Part shown: one piece after another, positions 7,566 through 23,134 of the stretch
How the letters are laid out: each line of letters opens with the position of its first letter
Position numbering within the stretch: the stretch's first letter is position 1
DNA from: Candidatus Zixiibacteriota bacterium
GTDB taxonomy: Bacteria; Zixibacteria; MSB-5A5; GN15; FEB-12
Assembly: GCA_024276275.1 (NCBI GenBank)
Contig: JAJRXM010000006.1
Span: 12,907 to 76,906, forward strand
DNA length: 64,000 nt
Direction of reading: 5' to 3'
Translations under genes and position numbers: made by a program
The notes under the pieces: generated by a model
Seen by the model: the letters and a program-made list of their open reading frames with translations, nothing else
What the model was told of the DNA's origin: nothing
The model's database searches: none

Positions 7566-9311
7566 TTATTTCCTTAAAGATTTCGGCTTCAGATGAACAG
7601 GATATAAAGTACCTTTGGATTGCACATGATATTTAGTGAACAATCGATCTTTAAAGTTTTTAAATACATTTTCTTTGTGTTCTTTTTTAAGAATAGGAAT
7701 AATCGTTCGTTTTGCTTCATCTAAAGTTTGTTCTTTTGCTATCTCTAAAACTTTAATCAAGTGATACCCAAATTCAGTTTTCACCGGATGAGACACTTCA
7801 CCGATTCGAGTCATTAAAGCAGCATTATAAAACTCTTTTGAAACATCATTTTCTCCGATATATCCCAAATTAGCCAAATCTTCTCTGATTGATTCTTCAC
7901 CCGGATAATGTTCTTTTGCCAACTGCATAAAATCAATCCCGGACATAGCTTGATCTCTTAAAAATTCACCAAAAACAGAATCCTCAACAATGATATGCTG
8001 TACTTTTAAAGGTTTTAAAACTTCAAAGTCAGCTGTATGACTGTTGTAATAATCCTCAATCATACTATCAGAAGGAGCCCATTGAGCATCAACCATTTGT
8101 TTGCTGACAACGGTTCTCGCATACTTATGATTTAGTTTTTCTCTTTGGTCTGTTAGAGCAGAATCTTTTTCAATACCTATTGCACGACCAGCCTGAACAA
8201 GTACATATCTTTCGCCAATTTGCCTGAACATCGCTTCTTTCATTTCAGCAGTAGTATTATCTACTTGGTACTTTTCTCTGAAAGTTAGTTCTAAAGACCG
8301 AGCTTCATTACAGTCAATTGTATCTATCCCGTTTATAATAGCTCCCCAAGTCCTACCTTTAATAACATAAATATTTCCATCTACAATCTCAGGATTCAGT
8401 TGTACATCAAAATCAGATAGTAAAGAATCTATCAGCTTATTACCTATCTCATTTGTTTTAACAGTTTGGAGTGTGGTTTTTGCGGCGATATATAAATTTT
8501 CATTTAGTTCCGGTAGACCGGCAGGATAGTACTCATTTGCCATAATAATATGCCAACCATTATTATCGCGATATGGTTCGGCTATATCACCGGCTCTTAG
8601 TTCAAACGCAATCGAATCAAAAGGATACGGATGTACTCCTTTTTTAGTCCAGCCAAGATACCCGCCTGTTCGTGCTGCGACTTCATCTTCTGTAAATTGT
8701 TTCGCTATTTCAGGGAATTTATCAGGTGAAGTAATAAGAGATTTAATAGAGTCGGCAAATTTAAACAATGCATCTTCCAAATCAACTTTGCTAAATTTTC
8801 TATACCGAAGAGAATCGGGACCAAATAATAATGTGTTTTTAGTTATAGCGATGTGATATAAATCAATCTGTTCTTCTATCGCGAATTTATCTTCATTGGC
8901 ATAATAATAGTCAACAATTTCCAGAGAGTCAGATTCAGCTTTATCATATACCATTTTTTTCAAATAGAGTCTGAGTAATATATCATAGTAACGGAGTTTA
9001 AACATTCTATACTGGCTATAATAGTCCGATAAATTAACTTCTGATGCTTCAAATCCCATCATCGAATCTAAAACTAATGAGTCTATAAATCCTCTTACCC
9101 GAGCTGTATCCAATACTCCACCCAGATTGAGTATTTTACTTTTATAAAGAGCATCGTATACTGTGTTCATTTCCAGACTATATCCATTATCTGCCGTAGC
9201 TACTAAAAACGGATAATCTTGATAATTTTTTTGAGAGATATTAAACGACGGTTTACATCCTAAAACTGCAATTAGAAGTAAAGCTGTTATTATTAGTTGT
9301 AACTTTTTCAA
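7566..9311 (-). CDS. Parvulin-type peptidyl-prolyl isomerase lipoprotein (SurA/PrsA-like, two rotamase domains)
   Basis: Lipobox AVLGC; GGYLGW...GWHII and LGYI...PVKTEFGYHLIKV. Confidence 0.85.
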   Translation of the reverse strand: MKKLQLIITALLLIAVLGCKPSFNISQKNYQDYPFLVATADNGYSLEMNTVYDALYKSKILNLGGVLDTARVRGFIDSLVLDSMMGFEASEVNLSDYYSQYRMFKLRYYDILLRLYLKKMVYDKAESDSLEIVDYYYANEDKFAIEEQIDLYHIAITKNTLLFGPDSLRYRKFSKVDLEDALFKFADSIKSLITSPDKFPEIAKQFTEDEVAARTGGYLGWTKKGVHPYPFDSIAFELRAGDIAEPYRDNNGWHIIMANEYYPAGLPELNENLYIAAKTTLQTVKTNEIGNKLIDSLLSDFDVQLNPEIVDGNIYVIKGRTWGAIINGIDTIDCNEARSLELTFREKYQVDNTTAEMKEAMFRQIGERYVLVQAGRAIGIEKDSALTDQREKLNHKYARTVVSKQMVDAQWAPSDSMIEDYYNSHTADFEVLKPLKVQHIIVEDSVFGEFLRDQAMSGIDFMQLAKEHYPGEESIREDLANLGYIGENDVSKEFYNAALMTRIGEVSHPVKTEFGYHLIKVLEIAKEQTLDEAKRTIIPILKKEHKENVFKNFKDRLFTKYHVQSKGTLYPVHLKPKSLRK

Positions 9312-9403
9312 TCTGAAACTCCATATTTATTTTATTGTTTTGCACAATAAATTATACACATTAATAGAAAAAACAAGGAGAATTCATTGAAAAAAATGAA
9401 AAA

Positions 9404-11089
9404 TTAGGCGTTTTGCGTAACGGGTAAAGTTGCCGAGTTGTTTTGAGGAATATATTTATTCAATTCTACCATAAATGTAGTACCTTCTCCCATTTGAGAG
9501 CTAATACTGATCGAGAGGTTTTGTGCTGAGCAAATTCTATGTACTATAGCTAACCCAAGTCCGGTACCTTCTTTTTTAGTAGAATAAAAGGGCTGGTATA
9601 TATGCTTCAGATGATGACTTTCAATTCCCGGGCCGTTATCTTGAATATACAATTCTACAATATCAGTAGAATCATGGACTGCTAATCTGAAAGTTAATTC
9701 ACCGCCTTTCTCCCCCATTGCTTCACAAGCATTCATAGCTAAGTTCAAGAGAAGCTGCTTGAAAAGGCTTTCATCCCCAATTACATACATCATCGATTCA
9801 TCTGATTCTATATTTATTTTAATACCGGAATGAAAAGACTTATGGTGATATAGTATCTCGATTACTTCCGATATAAGATGCAGAAGTTCTACTTTATTAT
9901 ATGACGGTCTATCTATTCTGGCATAAACTAAAAACTCGTTTAAAATATGGGACAACCTATCGGATTCTTTCACAATCAAAGACATAAGTTTAGCGTTTTC
10001 TTCAGATACATCTAGCTCGCTTTTTAGCACTTCAACCGAACCGGAAATAGCAGCTAATGGGTTTCGAATTTCATGAGCAATAGATGCTGACAGTTCTCCG
10101 ACAGCTGCCAGTTGGTCTGACATCCGTACTTTTTCCTCCAGCACTTTAGCATCAGTTAAATCCGAAAAAATTGCTATCACCCCACGAATCTGATTATTTT
10201 TTTCGGTTAAAACCGATGTAGATAACCCGACCGGTTTGCTTTGATTTTTATTATTAACAACAAATATTTCTTTTCTCGGATATGCAACATGGTTTTGAAT
10301 CCCCTGCATTAATATCTCAGCAAGGTCCGGCATTCTCTCGGAGAAAACTGTTGTGCAGGCAACTCCTTTTATATTTTCCTCTTTATAGTCCAGAATTCTT
10401 TCAGCTGCTTTGTTGAAATAAATTATTGCTCCGGTACTATCTATAGATAAAAGTCCTGAGTTTAAATGCTTTAAAATATCATCGGTCTCCAGTTTAGCTT
10501 TTTGCAATGCTAATGAAGCATCGGCAAGTTCTATATCTCTTTTTCGCAATCTTTCCGCCAAGTAACCCGAGATAAATGCTATCAGATAAAAAATAAGTAT
10601 ATGCATGAAAATCGGATAGAATATTGAATCACCGACAGAAAAAATTGTTTGTAGTGATTTCATAGAGAGATGCTGTACATTGTCTCCCCCAAACCCAAAC
10701 CAGATAATTAGTGCATAGGCTGCTGAAACAGTTGATGCTAAGAGTAAAGTACCGATTAGTCTAAAGACTAAAGAAGCTGAAATAATTGTTAAAATTAAGA
10801 GTATAGAATATTGAGAGTTGATATTTCCGGTAGTATATATAATACTTGATTCAATAAAAATTTCTAGAATAAATTGACAGCCGATTAAAAAGGATGTCAG
10901 GTTTTGTAAATTGTGACGTTTGTCCGTTGCTAGAAGAATTGAAAATCCAAGCGTTGCTATTGAATACAGTACAAATTGAAAATGCATAAAGTCGGGGAAT
11001 TCCATCGAGACACCGACAATAGCTGTCAATATTATATATTGTGCTAGTCGAAACGGAAGAAATAAGTTTTGTACTTTTAAGGTATTCAT
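9404..11089 (-). CDS. pilS: PilS-like membrane sensor histidine kinase (TM-PAS-HisKA-HATPase)
   Basis: TM region with TGNINSQYS, PAS domain, AHEIRNPL H-box, N/G1/F/G2 boxes; follows pilC. Confidence 0.8.
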   Translation of the reverse strand: MNTLKVQNLFLPFRLAQYIILTAIVGVSMEFPDFMHFQFVLYSIATLGFSILLATDKRHNLQNLTSFLIGCQFILEIFIESSIIYTTGNINSQYSILLILTIISASLVFRLIGTLLLASTVSAAYALIIWFGFGGDNVQHLSMKSLQTIFSVGDSIFYPIFMHILIFYLIAFISGYLAERLRKRDIELADASLALQKAKLETDDILKHLNSGLLSIDSTGAIIYFNKAAERILDYKEENIKGVACTTVFSERMPDLAEILMQGIQNHVAYPRKEIFVVNNKNQSKPVGLSTSVLTEKNNQIRGVIAIFSDLTDAKVLEEKVRMSDQLAAVGELSASIAHEIRNPLAAISGSVEVLKSELDVSEENAKLMSLIVKESDRLSHILNEFLVYARIDRPSYNKVELLHLISEVIEILYHHKSFHSGIKINIESDESMMYVIGDESLFKQLLLNLAMNACEAMGEKGGELTFRLAVHDSTDIVELYIQDNGPGIESHHLKHIYQPFYSTKKEGTGLGLAIVHRICSAQNLSISISSQMGEGTTFMVELNKYIPQNNSATLPVTQNA

Positions 11090-11150: not shown

Positions 11151-12347
11151 TTATATTTTTCCAATAATATCAAACATTGGAAGATACATAGCTATCAAGA
11201 TACCACCGATAACAACACCCATGAACACAATAATAATCGGTTCAATAACTGATGTTAAGGCAGTCACTGCTTCATCTACTTCTTCGTCGTAGAAGTCAGC
11301 AATTTTGTTAAGCATTTCATCAAGCCCACCTGTTTTTTCACCTACGGCAATCATCTGAGTTACCATTGGAGGGAATACCCCGGTTTCTTTTAACGGAGCA
11401 GTAATAGTATCACCCTCGGCAATAGCAAGAACCGATTTGTTAATAGCATTTGCTATTACCAAGTTACCCGCTGTTTTCGCAGTAATTTCCAGAGCTTCTA
11501 AAATTGATACACCTGAAGCCAACAGAGTACCGAGAGTTCTTGTAAACCGGGCAACAGATGACTTTCTTACTAACGTACCGATAACCGGCATGTGCAGTAA
11601 GATTTTATCCCACATCAAAGCACCTTGAGGTGTTTTTTTCCACCATATAAACAACGCTCCTAAACCGATTCCACCCAAAGTGAGATACATCATATTATCT
11701 TGTAAGAAATTCGATATTATTAAAACGACTTGTGTAGGCATCGGAAGCTCAGCATTCAAACCTCCAAACATCTTTGCAAATACAGGTACAATAAAGGCTA
11801 ACATACCGATAGTTACACCGGCGGCAACGACAACAATAACAGCCGGGTAAATCATGGCACCCTTTACTTTTCGAATCAATTGATCAGCTTTTTCACGATA
11901 GACAGCTAGTCTGTTTAGAATAGCATCTAAAGCACCACCGACTTCACCCGCTTCAACCATGTTGGTATATAATGTATCAAAAATTTTCGGATGACGAGCC
12001 AATGCTTCTGATAAAGTTGCACCGCCTTGTACTGAATCTTTTACTTGCACAACGATTTTTGCCAGTTCTTTATTTTCCATCTGAGAAGATAGAATATCTA
12101 AACATTGTACCATCGGTAAACCTGCACCGATCATAGTAGCAAATTGTCTTGTAAATCTTGATACATCAAGCCTTGCAACACCAGTACCGAATTTAATTTC
12201 GATATTAGCAGCTTTTTTTGATATAGATTTTACAATAATTCTATTCTGTCTGAGAATCCGCTCTAGGTCAGCTTTATTATCTGCTTTAATTTCGCCTGAA
12301 ACAGCAGCTCCTGCGAGAGTTTTTCCTTTATATTCAAATACCGGCAC
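11151..12347 (-). CDS. pilC: Type IV pilus platform protein PilC (T2SS F family)
   Basis: FTRQFATMIGAG, MVEAGEVGGALD, VGEKTGGLD, EPIII...MYLPMF. Confidence 0.95.
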   Translation of the reverse strand: MPVFEYKGKTLAGAAVSGEIKADNKADLERILRQNRIIVKSISKKAANIEIKFGTGVARLDVSRFTRQFATMIGAGLPMVQCLDILSSQMENKELAKIVVQVKDSVQGGATLSEALARHPKIFDTLYTNMVEAGEVGGALDAILNRLAVYREKADQLIRKVKGAMIYPAVIVVVAAGVTIGMLAFIVPVFAKMFGGLNAELPMPTQVVLIISNFLQDNMMYLTLGGIGLGALFIWWKKTPQGALMWDKILLHMPVIGTLVRKSSVARFTRTLGTLLASGVSILEALEITAKTAGNLVIANAINKSVLAIAEGDTITAPLKETGVFPPMVTQMIAVGEKTGGLDEMLNKIADFYDEEVDEAVTALTSVIEPIIIVFMGVVIGGILIAMYLPMFDIIGKI

Positions 12348-12373
12348 AGCTTATTCCTTTCCTTAAACTTTCT

Positions 12374-13450
12374 TTAGAAAGCAGGTGCTTTCTGATGTTT
12401 AGACATCATCTCACCCAATTCCTGTGCATTATGACTATAGTTCATCGCGTCATTTATTGTTATTTTATTATTTGTATATGATTCAAGTAATGATTGATTC
12501 ATTGTTCTCATACCGTATTTTTGTCCACCTTGCAGCATTGAATAAATTTGGTGTACTTTGTCATCACGAATTAAAGCACGAATAGCCGGAGTTACGACCA
12601 TTATCTCCATAGCCATCACACGTCCGCCACCTATTTTGGGAATCAAGGTTTGAGAAATTATCGCTTGTAAACTAAATGAAAGTGAAACGCGTATCTGTGC
12701 TTGTTGGTTAGCCGGAAAAGCATCGATAATTCTGTTGATAGATTCTGCTGCCGAGTTTGTATGCAAGGTTGCAAATGCCAAGTGACCTGTTTCGGCAATT
12801 GACAAGGCTGATTCAATTGTTTCTAAATCCCTCATCTCACCAATTAGGACTACATCGGGGTCTTCGCGAAGTGCGTACTTTAATGCCGATGCAAATGAAG
12901 GTGTATCTGAAAATACCTCGCGTTGATTTATGATAGCGGTTTGATGCCTGTGCAGATACTCAATAGGGTCCTCAACAGTAATAATATGAACCGGACGTTC
13001 ACGATTTACTTTATCAATAATTGATGCAAGCGTAGTTGATTTACCAGAGCCTGTCGGTCCTGTTACTAATACTAATCCACGTGGTAGCTTTGAAAGGTCT
13101 GCAATTACTTTAGGCAGGCCTAACTCTTCAAATGACTTTATCTCGTACGGAATCTGCCTGATAGCAATAGCCATGTTCCCTCGTTGCATAAACACATTAC
13201 AGCGAAAGCGACTCATTTGTTCAATACCAAAAGAGAAATCTAATTCTGAATTCTGTTCAAATTTCAGTTTTTGTTTTTCATTTAACATTGAATAACCAAT
13301 TTTTTTTGTTTGGTCAGATGTTAGAGCATCAAAATTTAACCGTTGTAACTTCCCGTCTACTCTTACAACAGGAGGGATACCTACTGTAATATGCAAATCA
13401 GAGGCGTTCATTTTAACCATTAATTCAAGTAATTCACGTAAAGAAACCAT
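12374..13450 (-). CDS. pilT: Type IV pilus retraction ATPase PilT
   Basis: GPTGSGKSTT, ALREDPD, TLHTNSA, AIRALIRD (AIRNLIRE-type motif), GMRTM. Confidence 0.97.
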   Translation of the reverse strand: MVSLRELLELMVKMNASDLHITVGIPPVVRVDGKLQRLNFDALTSDQTKKIGYSMLNEKQKLKFEQNSELDFSFGIEQMSRFRCNVFMQRGNMAIAIRQIPYEIKSFEELGLPKVIADLSKLPRGLVLVTGPTGSGKSTTLASIIDKVNRERPVHIITVEDPIEYLHRHQTAIINQREVFSDTPSFASALKYALREDPDVVLIGEMRDLETIESALSIAETGHLAFATLHTNSAAESINRIIDAFPANQQAQIRVSLSFSLQAIISQTLIPKIGGGRVMAMEIMVVTPAIRALIRDDKVHQIYSMLQGGQKYGMRTMNQSLLESYTNNKITINDAMNYSHNAQELGEMMSKHQKAPAF

Positions 13451-13505
13451 ACTTATATCTCCAGATAGATTTATAGTCGTAAGTAAAATTTGTATTTCTC
13501 TACTA

Positions 13506-13532
13506 TTATCGGTAAAAAAGCCGAATTCTTGA
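13506..13532 (-). promoter_or_regulatory. Putative sigma28 promoter for pilT-pilC
   Basis: Minus strand reads TCAAG-N14-ACCGATAA in the pilB-pilT gap. Confidence 0.7.
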
Positions 13533-13595
13533 AAGAAAAATAGACGTTTTTTGAATGATAAGTGGTTGAAAGACAGTTAATTTAGAATAGTGCAG

Positions 13596-15296
13596 CTAAC
13601 TTGAGACAGAAGTTGTAGAAACGACTTCCTCAAGTGCAACATCGCCGTTTTTCATTTTCTCAACAGCGCACATACGTAAAGAGAACATACCCTCACTTAA
13701 AGCACATTTACGTATATCAGAATCAGGTGCTTTTTTAAGTATCAAATGTTCGATATCGCTGGAAATAGGCATTACTTCATAAATACCGGTACGCCCCGCT
13801 TTTCCGGTTTGATTGCAGTCAGAACAGCCTTTCCCCTTAAATGCTCGAATTCCTTTTAATACATCATCCGGTACTTTAAGGTTTTTTACCTGTTCTTCAG
13901 TAAGATTTATTTCTTCTTTGCAGTTTTTACAAATCTTTTTCATCATTCTCTGAGCCATAATAAGTTTTGTGGCAGATGCAACCAGATAAAAAGGAACATC
14001 CATATCAATCAGACGATTTATAGACGATGGAGCATCGTTGGTATGTAGAGTCGAGAAAACTAAGTGACCTGTAAGAGCAGCACGAATAGCAATCTCGGCA
14101 GTTTCACCGTCACGAATCTCACCGACCATGATTACATCAGGATCCTGACGAAGGAACGATCTTAAGGCAGCTGCGAAAGTCATACCGATTTCCGATTTCA
14201 CCGCAACCTGATTGATTCCATCAAAGTTAAACTCAACAGGATCTTCCGCAGTCATAATATTAATATCAATAGTATTGATTTGCTTTAATGCCGAATACAA
14301 TGTTGTAGTTTTACCCGAACCGGTTGGCCCTGTTACTAAGATTATTCCGTAAGGTAAATGTATTTTATCTTCAAACTTTTTTAAATCTTCTTTTCTGAAC
14401 CCCAGTATAGTCATATCGACCATGAGTGCCATCGGGTCTAAAATACGCATTACGACTTTTTCACCGAAGATTGTAGGAAGAACAGAGACACGCAAATCAA
14501 CAGTACGCCCTGAAATTTTAATTTTAATACGTCCATCCTGCGGTAATCGTCGTTCGGAGATATCAAGTTCTGACATGATTTTAATACGAGAAACTATGGC
14601 AGCTCGGTATTTAAACGGAAGAGGTGCCATCTCACGAAGTTCCCCATCAATTCTGTAACGCACTCGAATACGTTTCTCATACATTTCAAAGTGAATATCA
14701 GATGCGCCCATACGAATAGCATCAGAAATAATTGAGTCAACTAATTTAACAAGAGGTTTATCTTGAATTTGCGAAAGTAAATCAGATTCAGACGGACCGT
14801 CATCTTCTGAAACAACTTCTAAATCAGAATCTTCTTCAAGCCCTTTCACTATTTCAGATAATGCTCCTGCGTCGACATAATAAGTATCAATTGCCTTTTC
14901 AATAGCTTTCTCGGGAGAGATAACCGGTTGAACAGTACAGCCGGTAATAAATTTAATCGCATCTAAAACATAGATGTTATTAGGGTCAGAAATAGCGACT
15001 AATAAATTTTTATTTAATTTAGTAATTGCAATTACTTTAAATTTACGGGCAATATCAAGAGGGATAAGTTTAACTACAGAGGGATTGAGTTCAATATCGT
15101 TGAGACGTAATGTACCGATTTTAAGGTTTTTTCCAACTAACTTTGCAATTTCATCCTGCGATGCAATAGCACCGATACTAACTAAGGCATCCTGAAAGTT
15201 TTCTTTATTCTTCGTAGCATGTGCTTTAGCTTTTTCAGCTTGTTCTGTTGTTATTTTACCGGCTTGCACCAGCATGGTGCTTAAATCTGATGACAT
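13596..15296 (-). CDS. pilB: Type IV pilus extension ATPase PilB
   Basis: ERRLPQDGRI, GPTGSGKTTT, LRQDPD, tetracysteine motif CKNC/CSDC. Confidence 0.95.
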   Translation of the reverse strand: MSSDLSTMLVQAGKITTEQAEKAKAHATKNKENFQDALVSIGAIASQDEIAKLVGKNLKIGTLRLNDIELNPSVVKLIPLDIARKFKVIAITKLNKNLLVAISDPNNIYVLDAIKFITGCTVQPVISPEKAIEKAIDTYYVDAGALSEIVKGLEEDSDLEVVSEDDGPSESDLLSQIQDKPLVKLVDSIISDAIRMGASDIHFEMYEKRIRVRYRIDGELREMAPLPFKYRAAIVSRIKIMSELDISERRLPQDGRIKIKISGRTVDLRVSVLPTIFGEKVVMRILDPMALMVDMTILGFRKEDLKKFEDKIHLPYGIILVTGPTGSGKTTTLYSALKQINTIDINIMTAEDPVEFNFDGINQVAVKSEIGMTFAAALRSFLRQDPDVIMVGEIRDGETAEIAIRAALTGHLVFSTLHTNDAPSSINRLIDMDVPFYLVASATKLIMAQRMMKKICKNCKEEINLTEEQVKNLKVPDDVLKGIRAFKGKGCSDCNQTGKAGRTGIYEVMPISSDIEHLILKKAPDSDIRKCALSEGMFSLRMCAVEKMKNGDVALEEVVSTTSVSS

Positions 15297-15339: not shown

Positions 15340-15828
15340 TTAATCCTGAAAAATATCATCAAGTTTATCTTCTGCTTGAGCAGCAAAATCTGAATCAATT
15401 CCGGATTGTTTATCCCGATCAGAATTTTGAATATCTGTAAAAACTTTTCTGAGTTCGGCACTAGTTTCTTTTGCATACAAACGTACCATACCGATTGTAG
15501 TTCTGTCATCAAAGATTACAACTAGAATTGACCTTTCTCCAACAATAGACATGTGGATATGATCTTTTTTTCCCTGATGAAACAAAACAGAGAACTCGGG
15601 TTCGCCGACTAATTTGGCAATTTCTTTTGTTGAAGCAAATGACCCTGCCAACAAAGCTGCCAAGGCAGTTGTATCTAATGAGTGCGTAAATCCCTGACGA
15701 GTTATCAGATGTCCGTCTTTATCAACTAAAAGAGCACATTTTGCTTCAGCACCTTTTAACATTTTTGAAATCAACGCATCAATCTTGTTAATCTCTTCTT
15801 CGTAGAAAATTAAATTATCTTCAGCCAT
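15340..15828 (-). CDS. mglB: MglB roadblock/LC7 GTPase-activating protein
   Basis: Closely resembles Myxococcus MglB (YEEE..KI, LVDKDG, DTTALAAL.AG, VVIFD.RT..G.VRL) including the acidic C-terminal helix DDIF. Confidence 0.9.
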   Translation of the reverse strand: MAEDNLIFYEEEINKIDALISKMLKGAEAKCALLVDKDGHLITRQGFTHSLDTTALAALLAGSFASTKEIAKLVGEPEFSVLFHQGKKDHIHMSIVGERSILVVIFDDRTTIGMVRLYAKETSAELRKVFTDIQNSDRDKQSGIDSDFAAQAEDKLDDIFQD

Positions 15829-15845: not shown

Positions 15846-16832
15846 CTATTTTAAACCGAACAATCTTTTAAAGAATCCTCGTTTTTTCTCCTTACGTGTT
15901 TTCATAGAAGGAGCCATCGAGGGAACATGCACTGATGTATCATCGGCATTATTCTTCGCAGGTTGTTCAATATTTTTTACTTGTTGAGTAGAAGCACCGT
16001 CAGTCGCTGATTGTTGCGATTGGGATGGTTCCGTTTTAACTTGTTTTATTTTTTGAGACATACTTCCCGGATACGGTCTGTGTTGTTCGTCAACATCAGA
16101 AACCGCAGTTGCGGTAGCCGAGGAAACAGGTTGCATCGGTTCATTTGGTTGTTGTAAGACCGGAGGAACTGAATCTTGTATACCTTGTTGAGCAGGTTGT
16201 ACATCATCCGGTTGTTCAAGTACAACAGCTTTCTTAGCAGCAGGTGAAGCAGTATCTTTTGCTTTGTTCAAAACAATTTTGATAATACCTTTTAGAGTAT
16301 CAAAGACTCCGTTACCAACTGTAGCAGATGCGACAAAGAATGGACGTCCTTTAGGGTTCAATTGTGGATTTAGTTGCTCAGGTCCTAAGACACCCGGTAA
16401 ATCACATTTGTTATATTGAATCACAAAAGGGAGCTCATCTATATCATATCCGTATTCAACGAGGTTATCTTCTAAGTTAGAAAGAGATTCAATATTTTCA
16501 TCCATTTTATCAGGTTGACTATCAGCCACAAATACAACACCGTCAACACCACGTAAAACTAATTTACGTGTAGCATTATAATACACCTGTCCCGGAACAG
16601 TATAGAGTTGAAATTTTGCCGCAAATCCATTTATAGAACCGATATTTATCGGCAGGAAGTCAAAATACAACGTTCGGTCAGCTTCAGTCGCCAGCGAAAT
16701 CATTTTTCCGCGAGTATTAGACGGTACTTTGGAATGTACATAGAGCAAGTTTGTGGTCTTGCCTGACAAACCGGGACCGTAATACACAATTTTGCAACAA
16801 ACTTCTCTTGATGAATAGTTTATCGATACCAT
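15846..16832 (-). CDS. mglA: MglA small Ras-like GTPase with ~135-aa C-terminal extension
   Basis: KIVYYGPGLSGKTTNL, DRTLYFDFLP, YTVPGQVYY, NKCD; tail ends KKRGFFKRLFGLK. Confidence 0.92.
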   Translation of the reverse strand: MVSINYSSREVCCKIVYYGPGLSGKTTNLLYVHSKVPSNTRGKMISLATEADRTLYFDFLPINIGSINGFAAKFQLYTVPGQVYYNATRKLVLRGVDGVVFVADSQPDKMDENIESLSNLEDNLVEYGYDIDELPFVIQYNKCDLPGVLGPEQLNPQLNPKGRPFFVASATVGNGVFDTLKGIIKIVLNKAKDTASPAAKKAVVLEQPDDVQPAQQGIQDSVPPVLQQPNEPMQPVSSATATAVSDVDEQHRPYPGSMSQKIKQVKTEPSQSQQSATDGASTQQVKNIEQPAKNNADDTSVHVPSMAPSMKTRKEKKRGFFKRLFGLK

Positions 16833-16847
16833 AGTGATATTCCTGTT

Positions 16848-17189
16848 TTATGCATTCACTTTTAACTTACTGATTGCATTTTTAATCTCTAATCGGATCA
16901 ATCCGATATTAACCGATTTTTCGGTTGTAACGACTAATATCCCTAAGCCGGCATCAGTAAAAAACAACTTACCTTCATCCGCTTCAATAGTAACTTGTTT
17001 GAGCGGTGTAGTTTTTAATCTATCCAAAGATTTTTGGATGTTTGCGGTTATTGATGCCGCCAAAGCACCAATAGTATCGCCTTCAAATGATTCATCGAGA
17101 TCAGCGGCAATAACAATACCGTCGTGTCCGACAACCATAGAACCGGTAATACCGGTTGTTTTGTTTAGTTCATTTAATACATCATACAT
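16848..17189 (-). CDS. Stand-alone roadblock/LC7 protein (MglB/MglC-like)
   Basis: GITGSMVVGHDGIVIAA...GALAA...NIGLIRLEI. Start MYDVL at 17189 after GGAGAG, overlapping the upstream stop. Confidence 0.85.
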   Translation of the reverse strand: MYDVLNELNKTTGITGSMVVGHDGIVIAADLDESFEGDTIGALAASITANIQKSLDRLKTTPLKQVTIEADEGKLFFTDAGLGILVVTTEKSVNIGLIRLEIKNAISKLKVNA

Positions 17190-18168
17190 ATATTCTCTCC
17201 GCGTTCCCGATAAGTTTTTCATCATATCGTTCTGCTGTATAGATTCTTATCATTTCAAGAGCCTGGTTAATACGTATATTTAAAATGTCATCCATGGAAC
17301 GTTCCGAGATGACAACCAAGGTATAATAGTTTTCAGATGCGATAATCAATCTTTGATTTTCAAACATCATATCAGTTTTTTCAGGTACAGTCAGTTGCAT
17401 TTTATGTAATGTCATTTTGTTTTGTTCAACAATCGGTAACACCAACGGTGCAATATCTTCCGCCTCAAACATTGCTCTTTGATAACTTGACAACAACAGA
17501 CCTTCATAGTCAACAACTGCCGCCATTAGTACGGTACCGTTTTCACCGATATAATTCACCGCTTTCTGAAATCCGATTTCATTTACCGAACTCTTTTGTG
17601 ACGACCTAAACGGTTGGGATTCAGAAAGTTGCGAAGTAACTTGAGGTTGTTCTTTGTTGATGTTTTCTTTTGTAACAACAAACGATGACGCACCTGCTAA
17701 ATGGCTTTTATCAACAGTTGGCTCATTGAGAGATGCCGCAGGTTTCGGAGTAGTCGCGTAGAATTTTTTTTGAGCGATAAATATCGGTTTTAAAATAAAA
17801 GGTGTCGCTAAAACATGTGAACCGACTGCCGGCCAGAAAGATGATGTTCCAAACGATATAGTAACACCTAGATTCATGTCATACATTAAGGCAATCAATC
17901 CTCCCAACATAACACCCAAAACATATCGAGCGACAAAACAAATAGTAGCATTTGTAAACAATCTTGCTAAAGTCGTCTCTTTGTTAAAGAAGAAGAGACA
18001 AAAACCGTAAAATACTATTTCCAATGCTATGGTAGTAAAAGAGGCATTCACCATAGATGACTGCATTAATTTTGTACCCAATAATACAGGGAACAATACC
18101 ATCGGTATAATTAATACAAACAACGCAAACAAAACCATTTGTCTTATAATACGTCCATCAATTTCCAT
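17182..18168 (-). CDS. Membrane protein (about 4 TM) with C-terminal roadblock/LC7 domain
   Basis: Hydrophobic N-terminal ~130 aa, S/P/Q-rich linker, then VLMAAVVDYEGLLLS roadblock-like motif. Confidence 0.7.
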   Translation of the reverse strand: MEIDGRIIRQMVLFALFVLIIPMVLFPVLLGTKLMQSSMVNASFTTIALEIVFYGFCLFFFNKETTLARLFTNATICFVARYVLGVMLGGLIALMYDMNLGVTISFGTSSFWPAVGSHVLATPFILKPIFIAQKKFYATTPKPAASLNEPTVDKSHLAGASSFVVTKENINKEQPQVTSQLSESQPFRSSQKSSVNEIGFQKAVNYIGENGTVLMAAVVDYEGLLLSSYQRAMFEAEDIAPLVLPIVEQNKMTLHKMQLTVPEKTDMMFENQRLIIASENYYTLVVISERSMDDILNIRINQALEMIRIYTAERYDEKLIGNAERIYV

Positions 18169-18186
18169 ACTTTATCCTTCAACTAT

Positions 18187-19086
18187 TTACCGGTACATAC
18201 CGAGTAAACTTTCAATTTTCATTCGTAAACTACCGAGGTTCGATTTTTCACCTGCGACAAAAACAAATAGTCCGATATCAACCCGTTGTACATAGTAGGT
18301 ATATCCGGTTGCTTCAATCAAAACAGTTTTAAAGTTCCCAAAAGATGATTCCATCAATTCCTGAGAAAGAAGTAAACTTAAGTCGCCGAGTGTAGCCCCA
18401 CAAAGTTCTACCTCGGTTTTGAGTGTCCACTCAGACTCTAAGACCAGTCCTTCTTTGTTGACTAAAAAGAGTCCGTCAACACCAACAATTTTGATTCCTT
18501 GTTCAATAACATCTTGTGCTGAAAGCTCTGTTTTTTCAACTACAGGTTGTGCAATAACAGGTGTTGGTATTTCAGCTTTTTCAAATTCCTTACTTGTCGT
18601 CATAATAGTTTTTTCTTCGCTTGCATTACTATTATAATTTTCAGTCTGAATTAGCACCTTCTGTTCTTCAGGTATTTTTTTGGCAATATCTAAAAGTCTA
18701 TTTATTTGGGTATTATACGGGTCAGCGTTATGTAGTTTTTTCAACAATTTAATTGCTGTTTGAAATTCCCCCCGATAGATATAAATTTCAGATAACAACA
18801 ACTCAATAGTTCTACTTTTGCCGTCAATTTCGGCAGCTTTTTTCGCTTCAACCATAGCCCAATCATATAGACCTCTATCAAGGTTGATTTTAGCCATAAC
18901 AACGTGAGCAGCTCCGTAAGACGGATGTATTTTTAACCCGCTTTGACAGACCCGAAAAGCGTTATCAAAATCGCCTTTTTTTCGGTAAGCATCTGCTAAT
19001 GCGGCAAAAATCTGCGAATTAGGATCAACATCAAGAATCTTCCGACATTTATCAATCCGCTCATCTATTTCAATAGAACTTATCAT
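18187..19086 (-). CDS. TPR-repeat protein with C-terminal roadblock/LC7 domain
   Basis: DPNSQIFAALADAYRKKG TPRs; GVDGLFLVNKEGLVL...NLGSLRMKI roadblock pattern. Confidence 0.8.
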   Translation of the reverse strand: MISSIEIDERIDKCRKILDVDPNSQIFAALADAYRKKGDFDNAFRVCQSGLKIHPSYGAAHVVMAKINLDRGLYDWAMVEAKKAAEIDGKSRTIELLLSEIYIYRGEFQTAIKLLKKLHNADPYNTQINRLLDIAKKIPEEQKVLIQTENYNSNASEEKTIMTTSKEFEKAEIPTPVIAQPVVEKTELSAQDVIEQGIKIVGVDGLFLVNKEGLVLESEWTLKTEVELCGATLGDLSLLLSQELMESSFGNFKTVLIEATGYTYYVQRVDIGLFVFVAGEKSNLGSLRMKIESLLGMYR

Positions 19087-19189: not shown

Positions 19190-19546
19190 TTATTCCAAAG
19201 TCTTTTTTGTCTCAAATACTCCAAACATAAACAAACCGAGTGCTAATAGTAAAAGAGCCGGAACGGCAAAAGAAGGCAACATAAAAATCTCAAAATCGTG
19301 CAGTAAATTTGCAAGTTGAGAAATCATGAGTACAGCAAAAGCTGAAAGAAAGATTTGCCAACTTTTAAAAAGTAGCCCTCCTCGAAGAAGAGACAATATC
19401 TTTACACTTCCGACCAAACAACCAAGTCCTACTAATAAAAGAACAGCACTTAACATTGTTGGAGGTTGAGTAATTACCGCAAAATTGGCAGCATGTGCAT
19501 CAGCACCAAGCAATAATAAACTAAATAGAACATAATTTTTTTTCAT
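19190..19546 (-). CDS. Small membrane protein (signal peptide plus about 3 TM)
   Basis: AHA-A cleavage-like site and three hydrophobic segments; starts 1 bp after the DUF4388 stop. Confidence 0.75.
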   Translation of the reverse strand: MKKNYVLFSLLLLGADAHAANFAVITQPPTMLSAVLLLVGLGCLVGSVKILSLLRGGLLFKSWQIFLSAFAVLMISQLANLLHDFEIFMLPSFAVPALLLLALGLFMFGVFETKKTLE

Positions 19547-19547
19547 T

Positions 19548-20753
19548 TTATCCTCGAACCATTTTTATGACTTTATCGGCACGTTTAATTGATTTATAAA
19601 AGTTTTCGTCTATTGCATATCGTTTTACTAGTTCTCTCCGAAAAGCGATAGGTTCAGCTATCTCTTTTTTCACTTTACTCACCGCATGATGATAAACCCC
19701 GTCACCCAATAGTTGAAAGACAAATTCCAATTGTTCCGACAGCATTGATTCAAGACCGGACATTAATTTATGATATCTGTTTTCTTTCGGAAGTGCATGT
19801 ACAGCCTCGATAAATTTATCTAGTTTAGGTCCAAGTTCAGAATTTGGATCGGTTCCGGGAAAGTATGCAAAAATTGAGCTCCTGTATTGCGAGACAAAGT
19901 CGTTAAAGCGTCTGTTTTCCATCCCCAAAATAGAGTCTACCGAATTTCTAATACGGTAAAAGCAGTTATTATACAGATTAAAAATTATCCCTAAGACAAC
20001 CTCTTCCTCATTTACTTTTATCTCTTCTTGGGCACTTTCAACTTTTCCGTTTGATTCAATCAGCTTGCTTAATATAAGTTTATAAACTGCCCGACAAGTT
20101 ACAAATTCACCTAATGGAGAGATACTCATTAAATCGGTCAAGGTTCTTTCACCGTTTATAAGTGTAACAACTCGGTACTCTTCCATACTAAAACGAACTT
20201 CTTCATTTTTAGTTTTTGGAGATGTTGCCAAGGCTAAACGAACATCATCGGGAGGGAGAACTTTTTGAATTTCAAGCCACTCATCAATACGACGAGTACC
20301 TTCCATAACAACATTCATCGTACTCAACTCTATCAGAAAAGGAGCATTTTTAGGTTTGCTACCTTCGTGAAAATAGAAATCACCCTCCTGCCAAGAAAAG
20401 AGATTATAGACGACCTCTTCAATTTGCAGTTTTAAACATTCGGCAATTTCTTCTTTATCAAAAAGATTCATATCAATAAGTGTAGTGCCTAATTGACGTC
20501 CGGTTTGTTTGTGCAACGTAATAGCTCTGTTGAGATCCTCTTTGGTTATTCTTCCACGATGTAGAAGCATATTCCCAAGTAAATCTTCAGAGGCGTTTAC
20601 TGATGAGGCATAAATGATATTTCCGTTCTTAAAGGAAACTTCTTTTTGTCTCGTAGAGGTCTTCAGCTCCAGAATACCGGTCTTTTTACCGGTTGCCAAT
20701 AGTTGTAAAATGTCTGGAAAAGATACTGTTTTTAAATTGCCCGCTAAACTCAT
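19548..20753 (-). CDS. DUF4388 (PatA_N-like) domain protein with internal MshEN-like repeat
   Basis: MSLAGNLKTVSFPDILQLL...KKTGIL, LFSWQEGDFYF, MEGTRRIDEW. Confidence 0.85.
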   Translation of the reverse strand: MSLAGNLKTVSFPDILQLLATGKKTGILELKTSTRQKEVSFKNGNIIYASSVNASEDLLGNMLLHRGRITKEDLNRAITLHKQTGRQLGTTLIDMNLFDKEEIAECLKLQIEEVVYNLFSWQEGDFYFHEGSKPKNAPFLIELSTMNVVMEGTRRIDEWLEIQKVLPPDDVRLALATSPKTKNEEVRFSMEEYRVVTLINGERTLTDLMSISPLGEFVTCRAVYKLILSKLIESNGKVESAQEEIKVNEEEVVLGIIFNLYNNCFYRIRNSVDSILGMENRRFNDFVSQYRSSIFAYFPGTDPNSELGPKLDKFIEAVHALPKENRYHKLMSGLESMLSEQLEFVFQLLGDGVYHHAVSKVKKEIAEPIAFRRELVKRYAIDENFYKSIKRADKVIKMVRG

Positions 20754-20872: not shown

Positions 20873-23134
20873 TTAAAACGGTATTTGAATAAGATATTCC
20901 GAATGATTATATAAATCAACGAATAAGTCCTCTGCCAACAGGTCTACATCTTCATTACCGGGAATATTTGTCTGTGCAATTTTTGAACAAATGACCTTTT
21001 CATATTGTAAATCTTTCAAAGTGAGATAGTCGTGTAGTGATATGTTCCAACTTGAACCAATTATTAAAATTCGTTTAAGCTTATCATTAAACGGTTGTAA
21101 ATTCTTTTGGGAAATTTTATCTACAAAGGTAATTTCATAACCTGTTGTTTTGAGTGAAAAACTGTTTTCATACAGTGAATAACCTATATCAAAATCCTCA
21201 GATTCAAGTTCTTGTAAAACTTCTAATTTTATTGCTAGTAATCCCTCGACAGTATTTTTTATTTTGTCGATAAAACTATTTTGAAGGCTCTTCGGCAGAT
21301 AGATACTATTTACTTCATACCTCTCCGCAATTCTAAGTAAGTCATCAATAGCCGAATAATCTGATTTGAGTACAATCAGTTTATCAATTTTCTTAATTTT
21401 TCTACTTTCTAGTTTCGGTATAATGATTTTTTCATCAATCAGATATGACTTCCCTTTGATACCGTTGATAATAAGATCAACTTCATTGTTTTCTATATTC
21501 ACAATCGCCATATTCCCTCCCGGAACAGTTGTACAAAGTACACTAATGTAATCATAACGATTCAAAGCAGTTATAGCTTGATTAATGGCGAATATGTTTA
21601 AAAACACCAACATGACAATCAAAGTTTTTCGACGGTTTGTTTTAGAGAGCAGAGCAAACGGAGCCATAAACAAGACTATATATAGACAAATAACCCCTAT
21701 GATTGTCCAATCATACACCTTTATCATCGGCATAGAACCTGCCCCGAAAATATCAACTATATAAACGGTAAAAGTAAGCAGCAGATTTAAAAAAGCTCCG
21801 ACAAAAAGCCCTAATAAAGGCAAAATAAAATCTGCCACGAGCAGAACCAAAACCCCTATTACTGCTGCCGAGACTAACGGTACAACAAATAGATTAGCTA
21901 TCGGAGATAACAAAGGTATCTGTTTGAAATAAAGCCCTATTAAGCCGAATGAAAATATCTGAGCAGTTAAAGAAATAAGAAACGGAAATAATAGAAATTC
22001 ATACCATTTTTTCAGGTGGTGTTTTTCAAGTAAGATATTCAACTTAGGAACAACTAAAATTAAACCCCAGGCAATTACAAATGAAAGCTGAAAACCTAAA
22101 TCAAATAGTTGGGACGGATCATACAAAAGGATCAGAAAGGCAGCAACAGCAATAAGGTTTTGCAGTTGATACCTTCTTTCTACCAAGCCTGCCCCTAAAA
22201 CCAACCCTGCCATAAGCGATGCCCGCAACACCGAAGGTTCTCCATAAGATAATAAAGAGAAAAGTATAACAACAGCCATCAAAAACAGAGCCCTCTTTTT
22301 TGTGTTCTTAAGAAGAGGATTAAACAAAAAACTAAAAAAAGTAATGACCAAAATAACATTTGAACCGGAAACTGCCAATAAATGTAATGTTCCGGAATCT
22401 TTAAAGCGTGTATATAATTCCGGAGGGATATCGCGAGTTTCACCGATTAAAAACCCTGAAGCTAATGCCGCCGAAACAGGTGAAAGGTTCCTATAAAGAC
22501 TCTTTGTAATAGCATTTCGTAATTGTTCAACAAGTGGAATTAAGGAATATCGACCTACCTTGTCATGTAAAACATTTAGTGGTGTAGTTAGATAGACAAC
22601 TCCACAAATTTCTTTGTATCGCAAAAACCGATTATAATTAAATTCCTTTGAAAAGCTTTTCCCCTCAACCGCATATATCCGACCTTCAAGAACAAGATTA
22701 TCTCCTCGTTGAAAAGAAGTTGTAAGACTGTTTATTTTTAAAAGAATTTTACCACGTACTGATACAGTCTTTACGTTTTCTAACGAATCAACATCTATGG
22801 TCAGTTCCGTTCTTTCTGATTTTAATTCCGGCCAATCAGCAACTTTGCCATAAATAACATAGGTCGATTTACTGTCAATATAGTTTGATATATGATTAGG
22901 TCCTGACTCATAATACATAGATGCAAACCGGACTCCCACAAACGATAACAGCCCAAGACCTATAGATATCAGTAGAAGTTTTTCTTTTTGAGATTTATAA
23001 CAGAATAAAGAACCGACAACAAACAGAACCAAAGAAAGAAAAAAGTAAGAGATGTCAAAACGATAATAATCAGCAACAAGAATTCCGGTTACAACAAAAA
23101 TCAAAAGAAACAACGCCGGAGATTTCTTAAACAT
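20873..23134 (-). CDS. comEC: ComEC/Rec2 DNA uptake channel
   Basis: DUF4131/OB region, GTLHLLAVSGSN, PSVLRA, DLGFQLSF; C-terminal MBL-like region is degenerate. Confidence 0.9.
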   Translation of the reverse strand: MFKKSPALFLLIFVVTGILVADYYRFDISYFFLSLVLFVVGSLFCYKSQKEKLLLISIGLGLLSFVGVRFASMYYESGPNHISNYIDSKSTYVIYGKVADWPELKSERTELTIDVDSLENVKTVSVRGKILLKINSLTTSFQRGDNLVLEGRIYAVEGKSFSKEFNYNRFLRYKEICGVVYLTTPLNVLHDKVGRYSLIPLVEQLRNAITKSLYRNLSPVSAALASGFLIGETRDIPPELYTRFKDSGTLHLLAVSGSNVILVITFFSFLFNPLLKNTKKRALFLMAVVILFSLLSYGEPSVLRASLMAGLVLGAGLVERRYQLQNLIAVAAFLILLYDPSQLFDLGFQLSFVIAWGLILVVPKLNILLEKHHLKKWYEFLLFPFLISLTAQIFSFGLIGLYFKQIPLLSPIANLFVVPLVSAAVIGVLVLLVADFILPLLGLFVGAFLNLLLTFTVYIVDIFGAGSMPMIKVYDWTIIGVICLYIVLFMAPFALLSKTNRRKTLIVMLVFLNIFAINQAITALNRYDYISVLCTTVPGGNMAIVNIENNEVDLIINGIKGKSYLIDEKIIIPKLESRKIKKIDKLIVLKSDYSAIDDLLRIAERYEVNSIYLPKSLQNSFIDKIKNTVEGLLAIKLEVLQELESEDFDIGYSLYENSFSLKTTGYEITFVDKISQKNLQPFNDKLKRILIIGSSWNISLHDYLTLKDLQYEKVICSKIAQTNIPGNEDVDLLAEDLFVDLYNHSEYLIQIPF

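Follow-up and report, generated by a model that had tools for sequence, protein, structure and literature searches.

The DNA analysed here is a stretch of 64,000 nucleotides from a Candidatus Zixiibacteriota bacterium (assembly GCA_024276275.1, contig JAJRXM010000006.1, positions 12,907 to 76,906 of the forward strand; hereafter the window, with positions counted from its first letter). On its minus strand it encodes an MglA of 328 aa. MglA is the model bacterial Ras-like polarity switch; where it has been studied it is soluble, measures about 195 aa and reaches the cell poles via protein partners. The best explanation of the longer protein found here, and one considered reasonably probable, is that it consists of a complete G domain, a free flexible spacer and a C-terminal anchor which would lie in the inner membrane near the pilus motor. 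An earlier note, made from the DNA letters alone, had proposed that this MglA binds the membrane directly by an amphipathic tail, and the sequence comparisons presented below support that reading. The gene and the parts of its product are:

15846..16832, minus strand: mglA, 328 aa, G domain plus tail (from the list of open reading frames, ORFs); stop codon at 15846-15848
16257..16832, minus strand: MglA G domain, residues 1-192 (PDB alignment, invariant residues, AlphaFold)
15924..16256, minus strand: variable, predicted-disordered linker, residues 193-303, 111 aa (translation, AlphaFold, column identity)
16062..16079, minus strand: short motif RPYPGS, residues 252-257 (column identity 0.6-0.9)
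15849..15923, minus strand: conserved C-terminal module, residues 304-328, PSMAPSMKTRKEKKRGFFKRLFGLK (translation), made of P-x-MAPS-(L/M)-(K/R), a basic stretch and an amphipathic peptide
15849..15887, minus strand: putative membrane-targeting peptide KKRGFFKRLFGLK, residues 316-328 (likeness to the MinD tag, conservation in orthologs)

Helices of the G domain exceed the terminal peptide in hydrophobic moment. Taken alone this measure does not discriminate, and conservation was therefore relied upon. In the order to which the genome belongs, an MglA match is present in 39 of 41 genomes, and all 30 loci fetched encode proteins of 320-399 aa ending in K/R-rich runs followed by GFFKRLFG-like peptides. 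In the sample of the whole phylum, MglA was matched at E ≤ 1e-20 in 270 of 285 genomes (195 of 198 among those of high quality). Open frames of at least 313 aa were found in 148 of the 150 matches listed for this sample, beyond which 125 further matches lie. The short MglA forms in G117 (a 203-aa frame) and G074 were rejected as contig-end truncations: the G117 contig ends at base 19236 and the G074 contig starts at base 2. All 30 genomes taken from 14 more distant families encode an MglA of 299-649 aa, and in none of the 20 families sampled is a full-length MglA short. With this query no MglA match was obtained in G004 (96% complete), a genome of the same genus, although every other genome of the genus has one; the cause may be an assembly gap or a real loss.

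The sequence of the tail end drifts, but its chemistry is kept. The exact string GFFKRLFG is present in 73 of 124 unique orthologs, the pattern PhiPhi-xx-PhiPhi (Phi, hydrophobic residue) in 114, and PhiPhi-x(1-2)-PhiPhi within the last 18 aa in 122; at least three consecutive K/R near the end are found in 111. In the last 16 aa of these orthologs the net charge has a median of +6 and the number of hydrophobic residues one of 5, and in 117 of the 124 a charge of at least +4 is combined there with at least 4 hydrophobic residues. In distant families the ends read FFLFRWF (KKKFFLFRWF), GLFGWLK, SLFSRLFGWLFGR, KKSGLFGWLKGKK, RSLFSRLFGWLFGR and KGFFLWRFVNKLFNR. Despite these changes the polybasic and aromatic/hydrophobic character, with spacing i, i+1, i+4, i+5, is kept in all 20 families. 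Such a pattern is expected for lipid binding and less so for a specific protein-docking peptide. Conservation of the tail in orthologs, on which the earlier note had made its proposal depend, was found in 20 families. A protein search with the tail only (residues 289-328) returned 16 candidates, all of them close Zixibacteria MglAs and none of them MinD, by a word-index method which is too insensitive to judge wider distribution.

In a 123-sequence alignment of orthologs (A1), the most conserved stretch of the tail is the terminal peptide, residues 316-326, with column identities of 0.75-0.93 from K316 to G326. Ahead of it P304 (0.90), M306 (0.86), A307 (0.81) and P308 (0.82) are conserved as well. 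The last 16 residues of the query contain eight K/R and one E. Among the 2387 ORFs of at least 150 aa in its own genome, the pattern [KR]G[FLIW]2[KR]2[FLIW]2G occurs once, in mglA only, and a loose filter for a cationic and hydrophobic C-terminus is passed by 13. The MinD-like end of mglA is more than chance. By a HeliQuest-style discriminant D, computed with what we take to be its formula, the best cationic amphipathic 18-mer of the tail lies within the last 25 aa in 121 of 124 orthologs; D ≥ 1.34 is reached by 0.6% of 15738 linker 18-mers. For the distant ortholog L073, AlphaFold (alignment A3) predicts a terminal helix at 319-326, with confidence rising toward the end. In the query genome, a 457-aa ORF on contig C79 (93544-94917, minus strand) also has an end, ...LFKPRGFFKRSS, that partly echoes the terminal peptide of MglA.

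The membrane-targeting tag of E. coli MinD is KGFLKRLFGG, and a fusion protein carrying it becomes attached to the membrane of E. coli (PMC5471200). RGFFKRLFGL of the query is identical to it at 7 of 10 positions and carries two conservative changes, so the likeness to the MinD tag that the earlier note had seen at the tail end is borne out. Both peptides occupy the extreme C-terminus and share the same Phi-Phi-K-R-Phi-Phi spacing with glycines on both sides, and their hydrophobic moments are near each other (0.47 for the MglA peptide, 0.55 for the MinD tag). The carriers differ: the MglA peptide hangs from a Ras-like GTPase at the end of a long disordered linker, whereas the MinD tag is joined without a spacer to its ParA/MinD ATPase. 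The polybasic run ahead of the MglA peptide is also stronger. MinD itself (TIGR01968) is not over its cut-off in the query genome, where the best ParA/MinD-like match scores 80.6 bits against 212.9, and none of 81 Zixibacteria genomes at least 90% complete yielded it at E ≤ 1e-30 (control: 6 of 14 reference genomes over the cut-off). With MinD found in none of these genomes, copying of the motif from a resident MinD is unlikely and was rejected. The same absence from the genomes searched suggests that the likeness is most likely a convergence on a good lipid-binding peptide, and Zixibacteria may be without a Min system.

The linker between the G domain and the module is variable in both length and sequence. 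In 124 unique orthologs it spans 79-429 aa (median 137); at the median, 79% of its residues are disorder-prone and its net charge is -5, and its column identity in alignment A1 is about 0.2. Residues 193-313 of the query consist of Q (14%), S (11.6%), P (11.6%), A (10.7%), V (9.9%) and T (6.6%) among others and have a net charge of -4, in agreement with the earlier description of a tail rich in P/Q/S/T/A. In the AlphaFold2 model of the query, residues 196-328 are without secondary structure (block values of the predicted local distance difference test, pLDDT, of 49-66), and in that of L073 the linker has a pLDDT below 50. The models thus support a disordered linker, as had been claimed from the letters: it is low-pLDDT coil in both. 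Within it, RPYPGS is an order-restricted motif, [RK]P[YFWH]P[GAS] being present in 130 of 161 loci and in 0 of 30 loci of distant families. It resembles the C-terminal ends (D/E)EIELRPY(V/I)PKKK of another MglA lineage (loci L200-L221), and other MglA ends, the acidic DSPF(I/L)DLQPF and DFDPYG (P0074, P0087), likewise resemble it. Judging by these sequences, an RPYPGS-like short linear motif may be common to MglA tails.

The G domain, the catalytic residues and the MglB partner mark the query as a true MglA. In phmmer searches of PDB it matched residues 3-192 of Myxococcus xanthus MglA (5ymx_A) at E 1.5e-75 and Thermus thermophilus MglA (3t12_A) at E 3e-70; the solved MglA chains are 195-203 aa long and tail-less. 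Pfam is without its own MglA model, and its Arf and Ras models match the G domain only below their cut-offs. AlphaFold2 (alignment A1) predicts a folded G domain whose last helix spans residues 176-195. The P-loop G19-T26 (GxxxxGK(T)) is present, as are the TxxGQ G3 motif and NKxD, and residues K25, T26, R53, T78, G81, Q82, N141, K142 and D144 are invariant in the 123 orthologs of A1. The assignment of query residue numbers to the catalytic Gln and Arg-finger roles is in part our assumption. The roles themselves, those of an intrinsic catalytic Gln and an Arg finger, are given in PMC4316618. The genome is 95% complete and mglA is its single MglA match. The earlier division of the protein into a G domain of about 190 aa and a tail of about 135 aa was accurate (residues 1-192 and a 136-aa tail), and the interval 15846-16260 which it gave for the tail proved on translation to be the stop codon plus residues ~192-328. 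At 328 aa the protein exceeds the single-domain form of about 195 aa (<240 aa in the survey of Wuichet and Sogaard-Andersen), and it is therefore classed as an MglA variant and not as a canonical member.

The mglA gene stands in a cluster on the minus strand in the order ComEC, PATAN, orf118 (118 aa), TPR-Roadblock, transmembrane (TM)-Roadblock, Roadblock, MglA, MglB, PilB, PilT, PilC. All 7 loci compared share this order, and five of the 7 come from distant families (in one of the seven PilT/PilC were not seen within the fetched stretch). The window has a G+C content of 36%, and its genes around mglA are:

7566-11089, minus strand: PAS/HisKA sensor kinase plus PpiC/SurA-type peptidyl-prolyl isomerase, downstream of pilC
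11151-12347, minus strand: pilC (NCBIfam PilC 1.2e-147)
12374-13450, minus strand: pilT (NCBIfam PilT family 1.2e-149)
13596-15296, minus strand: pilB (Pfam T2SSE 7e-134)
15340..15828, minus strand: mglB, Roadblock GTPase-activating protein, 162 aa, 17 nt downstream of mglA (Pfam Robl_LC7 1e-13; PDB 6izw_B, M. xanthus MglB, 3.3e-40)
16848..17225, minus strand: Roadblock/LC7 protein, 125 aa (Pfam Robl_LC7 1.5e-13; PDB Roadblock proteins 4e-9), syntenic in 7/7 loci
17182..18168, minus strand: multi-pass membrane protein, 328 aa, with hydrophobic segments in residues 3-94 (hydropathy) and a weak Roadblock-like C-terminus
18187..19086, minus strand: TPR protein with a Roadblock-like C-terminus, 299 aa (TPR families; C-terminal 120 aa against Robl_LC7 E 0.026, LAMTOR5 0.073)
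19548..20753, minus strand: PATAN (DUF4388) protein with an MshE-related motif for binding of cyclic di-GMP (c-di-GMP), 401 aa (Pfam DUF4388 1.3e-34; NCBIfam NF053729 5.7e-13)
20873-23134, minus strand: ComEC/Rec2-like competence channel, upstream of the cluster and syntenic with it

The type IV pilus motor genes pilB, pilT and pilC (11151..15296) thus lie directly downstream of mglB, whose product is matched by the NCBIfam MglB model at 4.3e-28, below the 200-bit cut-off of that model. The 328-aa membrane protein has no Pfam match; its ortholog cross-matches the 125-aa Roadblock protein at 6e-6, and orthologs of the TPR protein do so at ~1e-9. In two distant loci (L171, L172) the homologue of the membrane Roadblock protein is only 136-160 aa long. 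Besides MglB, three Roadblock-type proteins flank mglA (16848-19086) in phylum-wide synteny, an arrangement which recalls that of Ragulator and Rag. PATAN is the name given to DUF4388, and PATAN regulators are described as interacting with the type IV pilus motor and as regularly encoded beside MglA/MglB homologues (bioRxiv 10.1101/2021.06.11.447907). The cluster is therefore read as a pilus-polarity module. The PATAN protein with its c-di-GMP motif co-occurs with tailed MglA in Zixibacteria and in metagenomic lineages with amphipathic and with transmembrane tails, which suggests a c-di-GMP input into the module.

In the mechanism proposed, the F/L-rich peptide would lie in the anionic leaflet of the inner membrane that faces the cytoplasm, in the fashion of the MinD tag, and the polybasic cluster would reinforce the anchoring electrostatically, as does the polybasic region of K-Ras4B. 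A spacer of about 110 aa, flexible and evolutionarily free, would separate the 25-residue module from the G domain, which would cycle between GTP and GDP under the adjacent MglB on a leash tens of nanometres long. So tethered, the G domain could conduct its search for targets in two dimensions. The likeliest of these targets are the PilB/PilT/PilC motor and, from the same cluster, the Roadblock, TPR and PATAN proteins; the tether would also concentrate MglA near the pilus base. The MglA of Zixibacteria would then probably act at the inner membrane, next to the pilus motor under its proposed control. Arf and Sar1 are likewise small GTPases that use an amphipathic helix of their own (putative in MglA) for the membrane. 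Their helix is N-terminal, is coupled directly to the switch regions and becomes exposed only when GTP is bound, whereas the putative MglA helix is C-terminal. Because 79-429 unconserved residues separate it from the G domain, nucleotide gating of the Arf/Sar1 kind is unlikely and the tether is probably constitutive or lipid-dependent.

Several observations weigh against direct anchoring. The sampled genomes are mutually related, so that the counts given above overstate independence, and all members are uncultured metagenome-assembled genomes. The hydrophobic moment of KRGFFKRLFGL (0.47) is reached by 25% of shuffles, the hydrophobic core of the peptide makes up only about two helical turns with glycines on both sides, and in AlphaFold2 the last 13 residues of the query are not helical (pLDDT about 56-66). 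For the amphipathic helix which the earlier note had placed at the tail end the signs are thus divided: the helix of the distant ortholog speaks for it, but the coil and the moment of the query do not. The MinD tag is unstructured until it contacts the membrane; MinD needs ATP-driven dimerisation for stable membrane binding, and without dimerisation a single tag binds weakly. The tag was used as two copies in tandem in PMC5471200, and MglA is described as monomeric (PMC4316618). The polybasic run is therefore probably essential, and if it does not make up for these limits, the anchor could bind only weakly or for short times, or need avidity. Lipid binding also leaves the conserved P-x-MAPS-L-R and RPYPGS unexplained, which suggests that protein partners read the tail too; both P-x-MAPS (304-309) and RPYPGS (252-257) may be docking sites for proteins of the cluster.

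These two motifs look like short linear motifs and so also count in favour of the main alternative, itself rather unlikely, namely that the C-terminal module is as a whole a protein-docking peptide of the FtsZ kind for the membrane Roadblock protein, the TPR-Roadblock protein or a pilus component, any membrane localisation being indirect. FtsZ shares the three-part architecture of a globular GTPase, a disordered linker and a conserved C-terminal peptide that binds FtsA or ZipA, the canonical peptide being described as FtsA-interacting (bioRxiv 10.1101/2023.08.29.555414). Candidate partners for such a peptide are at hand, since in 7 of 7 loci mglA is accompanied in synteny by the TPR protein and by three more proteins of Roadblock type. 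However, a sequence that shifts while its charge and aromatic/hydrophobic character stay would be unusual for specific docking, and the peptide shares 7 of 10 positions with a tag known to bind lipid. In addition, sister lineages swap in a transmembrane helix, which suggests that membrane attachment is the selected property.

The tail could also be a regulatory element which folds back on the G domain or on MglB, as an autoinhibitor or with a function like that of a guanine nucleotide dissociation inhibitor or exchange factor. Allostery by a terminal helix does occur between MglA and MglB: in M. xanthus, MglB uses its C-terminal helix to bind MglA allosterically (PMC6785124). The module is, moreover, strongly conserved. 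This is nevertheless judged improbable: in both AlphaFold models the tail is a low-pLDDT coil without contact or ordering against the G domain, a linker range of 79-429 aa is hard to square with a defined intramolecular interaction, and a net charge of +6 to +7 with aromatics fits lipid binding better. Binding of the polybasic end to another polyanion (DNA, RNA, polyphosphate) in place of the membrane finds support in the eight K/R of the last 16 residues and in the ortholog median net charge of +6, but would have no need of the aromatic/hydrophobic i, i+1, i+4, i+5 pattern. As the neighbours are pilus motor and polarity genes and transmembrane-anchored sister lineages exist, it is considered very improbable. 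That the extension is functionless low-complexity sequence or an artefact of ORF calling is scarcely credible; the linker is indeed of low complexity and poorly conserved, but the frame is open to the conserved terminal peptide in all 83 Zixibacteria loci inspected. This candidate was rejected as refuted by conservation, 148 of 150 frames among the matches listed being open and the other two truncated at contig ends.

With direct anchoring as the preferred reading, the protein can be set beside better-known systems. The M. xanthus and T. thermophilus MglAs (PDB 5ymx, 6h17, 3t12) have in common with it the G domain, the invariant residues, an adjacent MglB and the linkage to a type IV pilus ATPase; the query adds the 136-aa tail with its terminal cationic amphipathic peptide. 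In M. xanthus MglA is cytosolic or polar and is localised by protein partners (RomR/RomX, MglB). As in Ras, Rho and Rab, and especially K-Ras4B, a G domain is followed by a variable flexible region, a basic cluster and a hydrophobic anchor, but here the anchor would be a peptide and not a lipid, and the linker is far longer (79-429 aa). There is no cysteine in residues 193-328, hence no CaaX box and no prenylation. The Ras/Rab parallel drawn in the earlier note therefore stands as an analogy only: the variable flexible region and the polybasic stretch agree with it, but a prenylation site is missing. Archaeal Rab-like GTPases are described as being without an extended C-terminus, polybasic region or other membrane signal (Surkont and Pereira-Leal, PMC4915359), and so the MglA tail would be an independent bacterial invention.

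Mycoplasma genitalium FtsZ has an amphipathic helix at its C-terminus that is described as binding liposomes and as going to the membrane in E. coli (bioRxiv 10.1101/2023.08.29.555414). The likeness is that the GTPase's own terminal amphipathic helix takes the place of the usual protein-mediated membrane attachment. The systems differ in that this FtsZ is a tubulin-type protein of the division ring whose helix is restricted to 12 mycoplasma species, whereas the MglA tail belongs to a Ras-type protein of polarity and pilus function and is found in a whole phylum. By analogy, the comparisons support a protein which acts like a MinD-type tag plus a Ras-type hypervariable region while being a member of neither family. 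If this is true, the sole MglA of the phylum carries its own anchor, which would give it two-dimensional diffusion, membrane charge or curvature as a cue, and proximity to the pilus motor. Its architecture would then be an independent bacterial counterpart, and a clean one, of the layout seen in Ras, Rho and Rab, where a hypervariable region is followed by an anchor.

Tailed MglAs are also found outside Zixibacteria. The A1 profile, searched against 1.84 billion cluster representatives, gave 7820 matches at E ≤ 1e-3, and the best 150 of these are all 255-717 aa long, a ranking which favours long forms and says nothing on their overall share because the profile includes linker columns. By their C-termini, these best 150 comprise 53 cationic amphipathic ends (one, P0091, probably a false positive), 18 transmembrane-like ends, 6 acidic x-P-Y/F ends and 73 others. 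The statement that canonical MglA is about 195 aa long, made in the earlier note, is consequently true of those MglAs that have been characterised, but in metagenomes extended forms are common. The survey in PMC4316618 dropped sequences >240 aa, keeping 449 of 488 MglA-clade sequences (39 left out), and its main text mentions no tail on MglA. Since many of the best 150 of the 7820 matches have anchor-like ends, this length limit appears to have left a blind spot. No tailed or membrane-anchored MglA was described in the literature searched, whose scope did not extend to subscription-only papers and supplementary tables (e.g. Table S2 of PMC4316618), and anchored MglA GTPases are, from their sequences, apparently an undescribed class.

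In a G-domain tree of the metagenomic representatives (FastTree, midpoint-rooted) the Zixibacteria MglAs form their own clade. A second clade, of about 45 representatives, has the N-terminus MA[ST]INYAAREI and the end KKP(V/I)NPK...K(K)GF(F/L)xxLF, a motif also present in alignment A2. A small clade ends in PKKRGFFSRLFGG or KKKKGLLGRLFGMKG, one with the N-terminus MVQINFA... ends in a hydrophobic helix, and further clades bear other C-terminal domains. A metagenome scan gave 79 loci. Loci of the second clade read PATAN-(Roadblock)-MglA-MglB, without pil genes. In 16 of the 79 a transmembrane-ended MglA stands in the context PATAN-(TPR-Roadblock)-Roadblock-MglA-MglB, 11 end in (D/E)EIELRPY(V/I)PKKK, and 5 encode canonical proteins of 195-203 aa.

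Because other lineages have K(K)GF(F/L)xxLF or transmembrane ends, C-terminal membrane attachment appears to recur in the MglA family. About as likely as not is the broader claim that C-terminal anchoring is a widespread, overlooked state of MglA, with an amphipathic peptide in Zixibacteria and at least two other metagenomic lineages and a transmembrane helix in another, all in a shared module of PATAN, Roadblock, MglA and MglB. If it holds, bacteria would have arrived on their own at the eukaryotic principle by which a hypervariable region and a membrane anchor follow the G domain. In these phyla the membrane surface would then be the site of polarity switching, and anionic-lipid or curvature cues at the poles might be read there in place of the RomR-type landmarks of other bacteria.

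In the tail-anchored MVQINFA... lineage (a subset of P0060-P0165) the hydrophobic helix follows a variable linker, and the gene adjoins MglB and Roadblock/PATAN genes. The transmembrane-ended loci are L193, L205, L209, L215, L216, L223, L224, L226, L228, L231, L241-L243, L245, L251 and L252.

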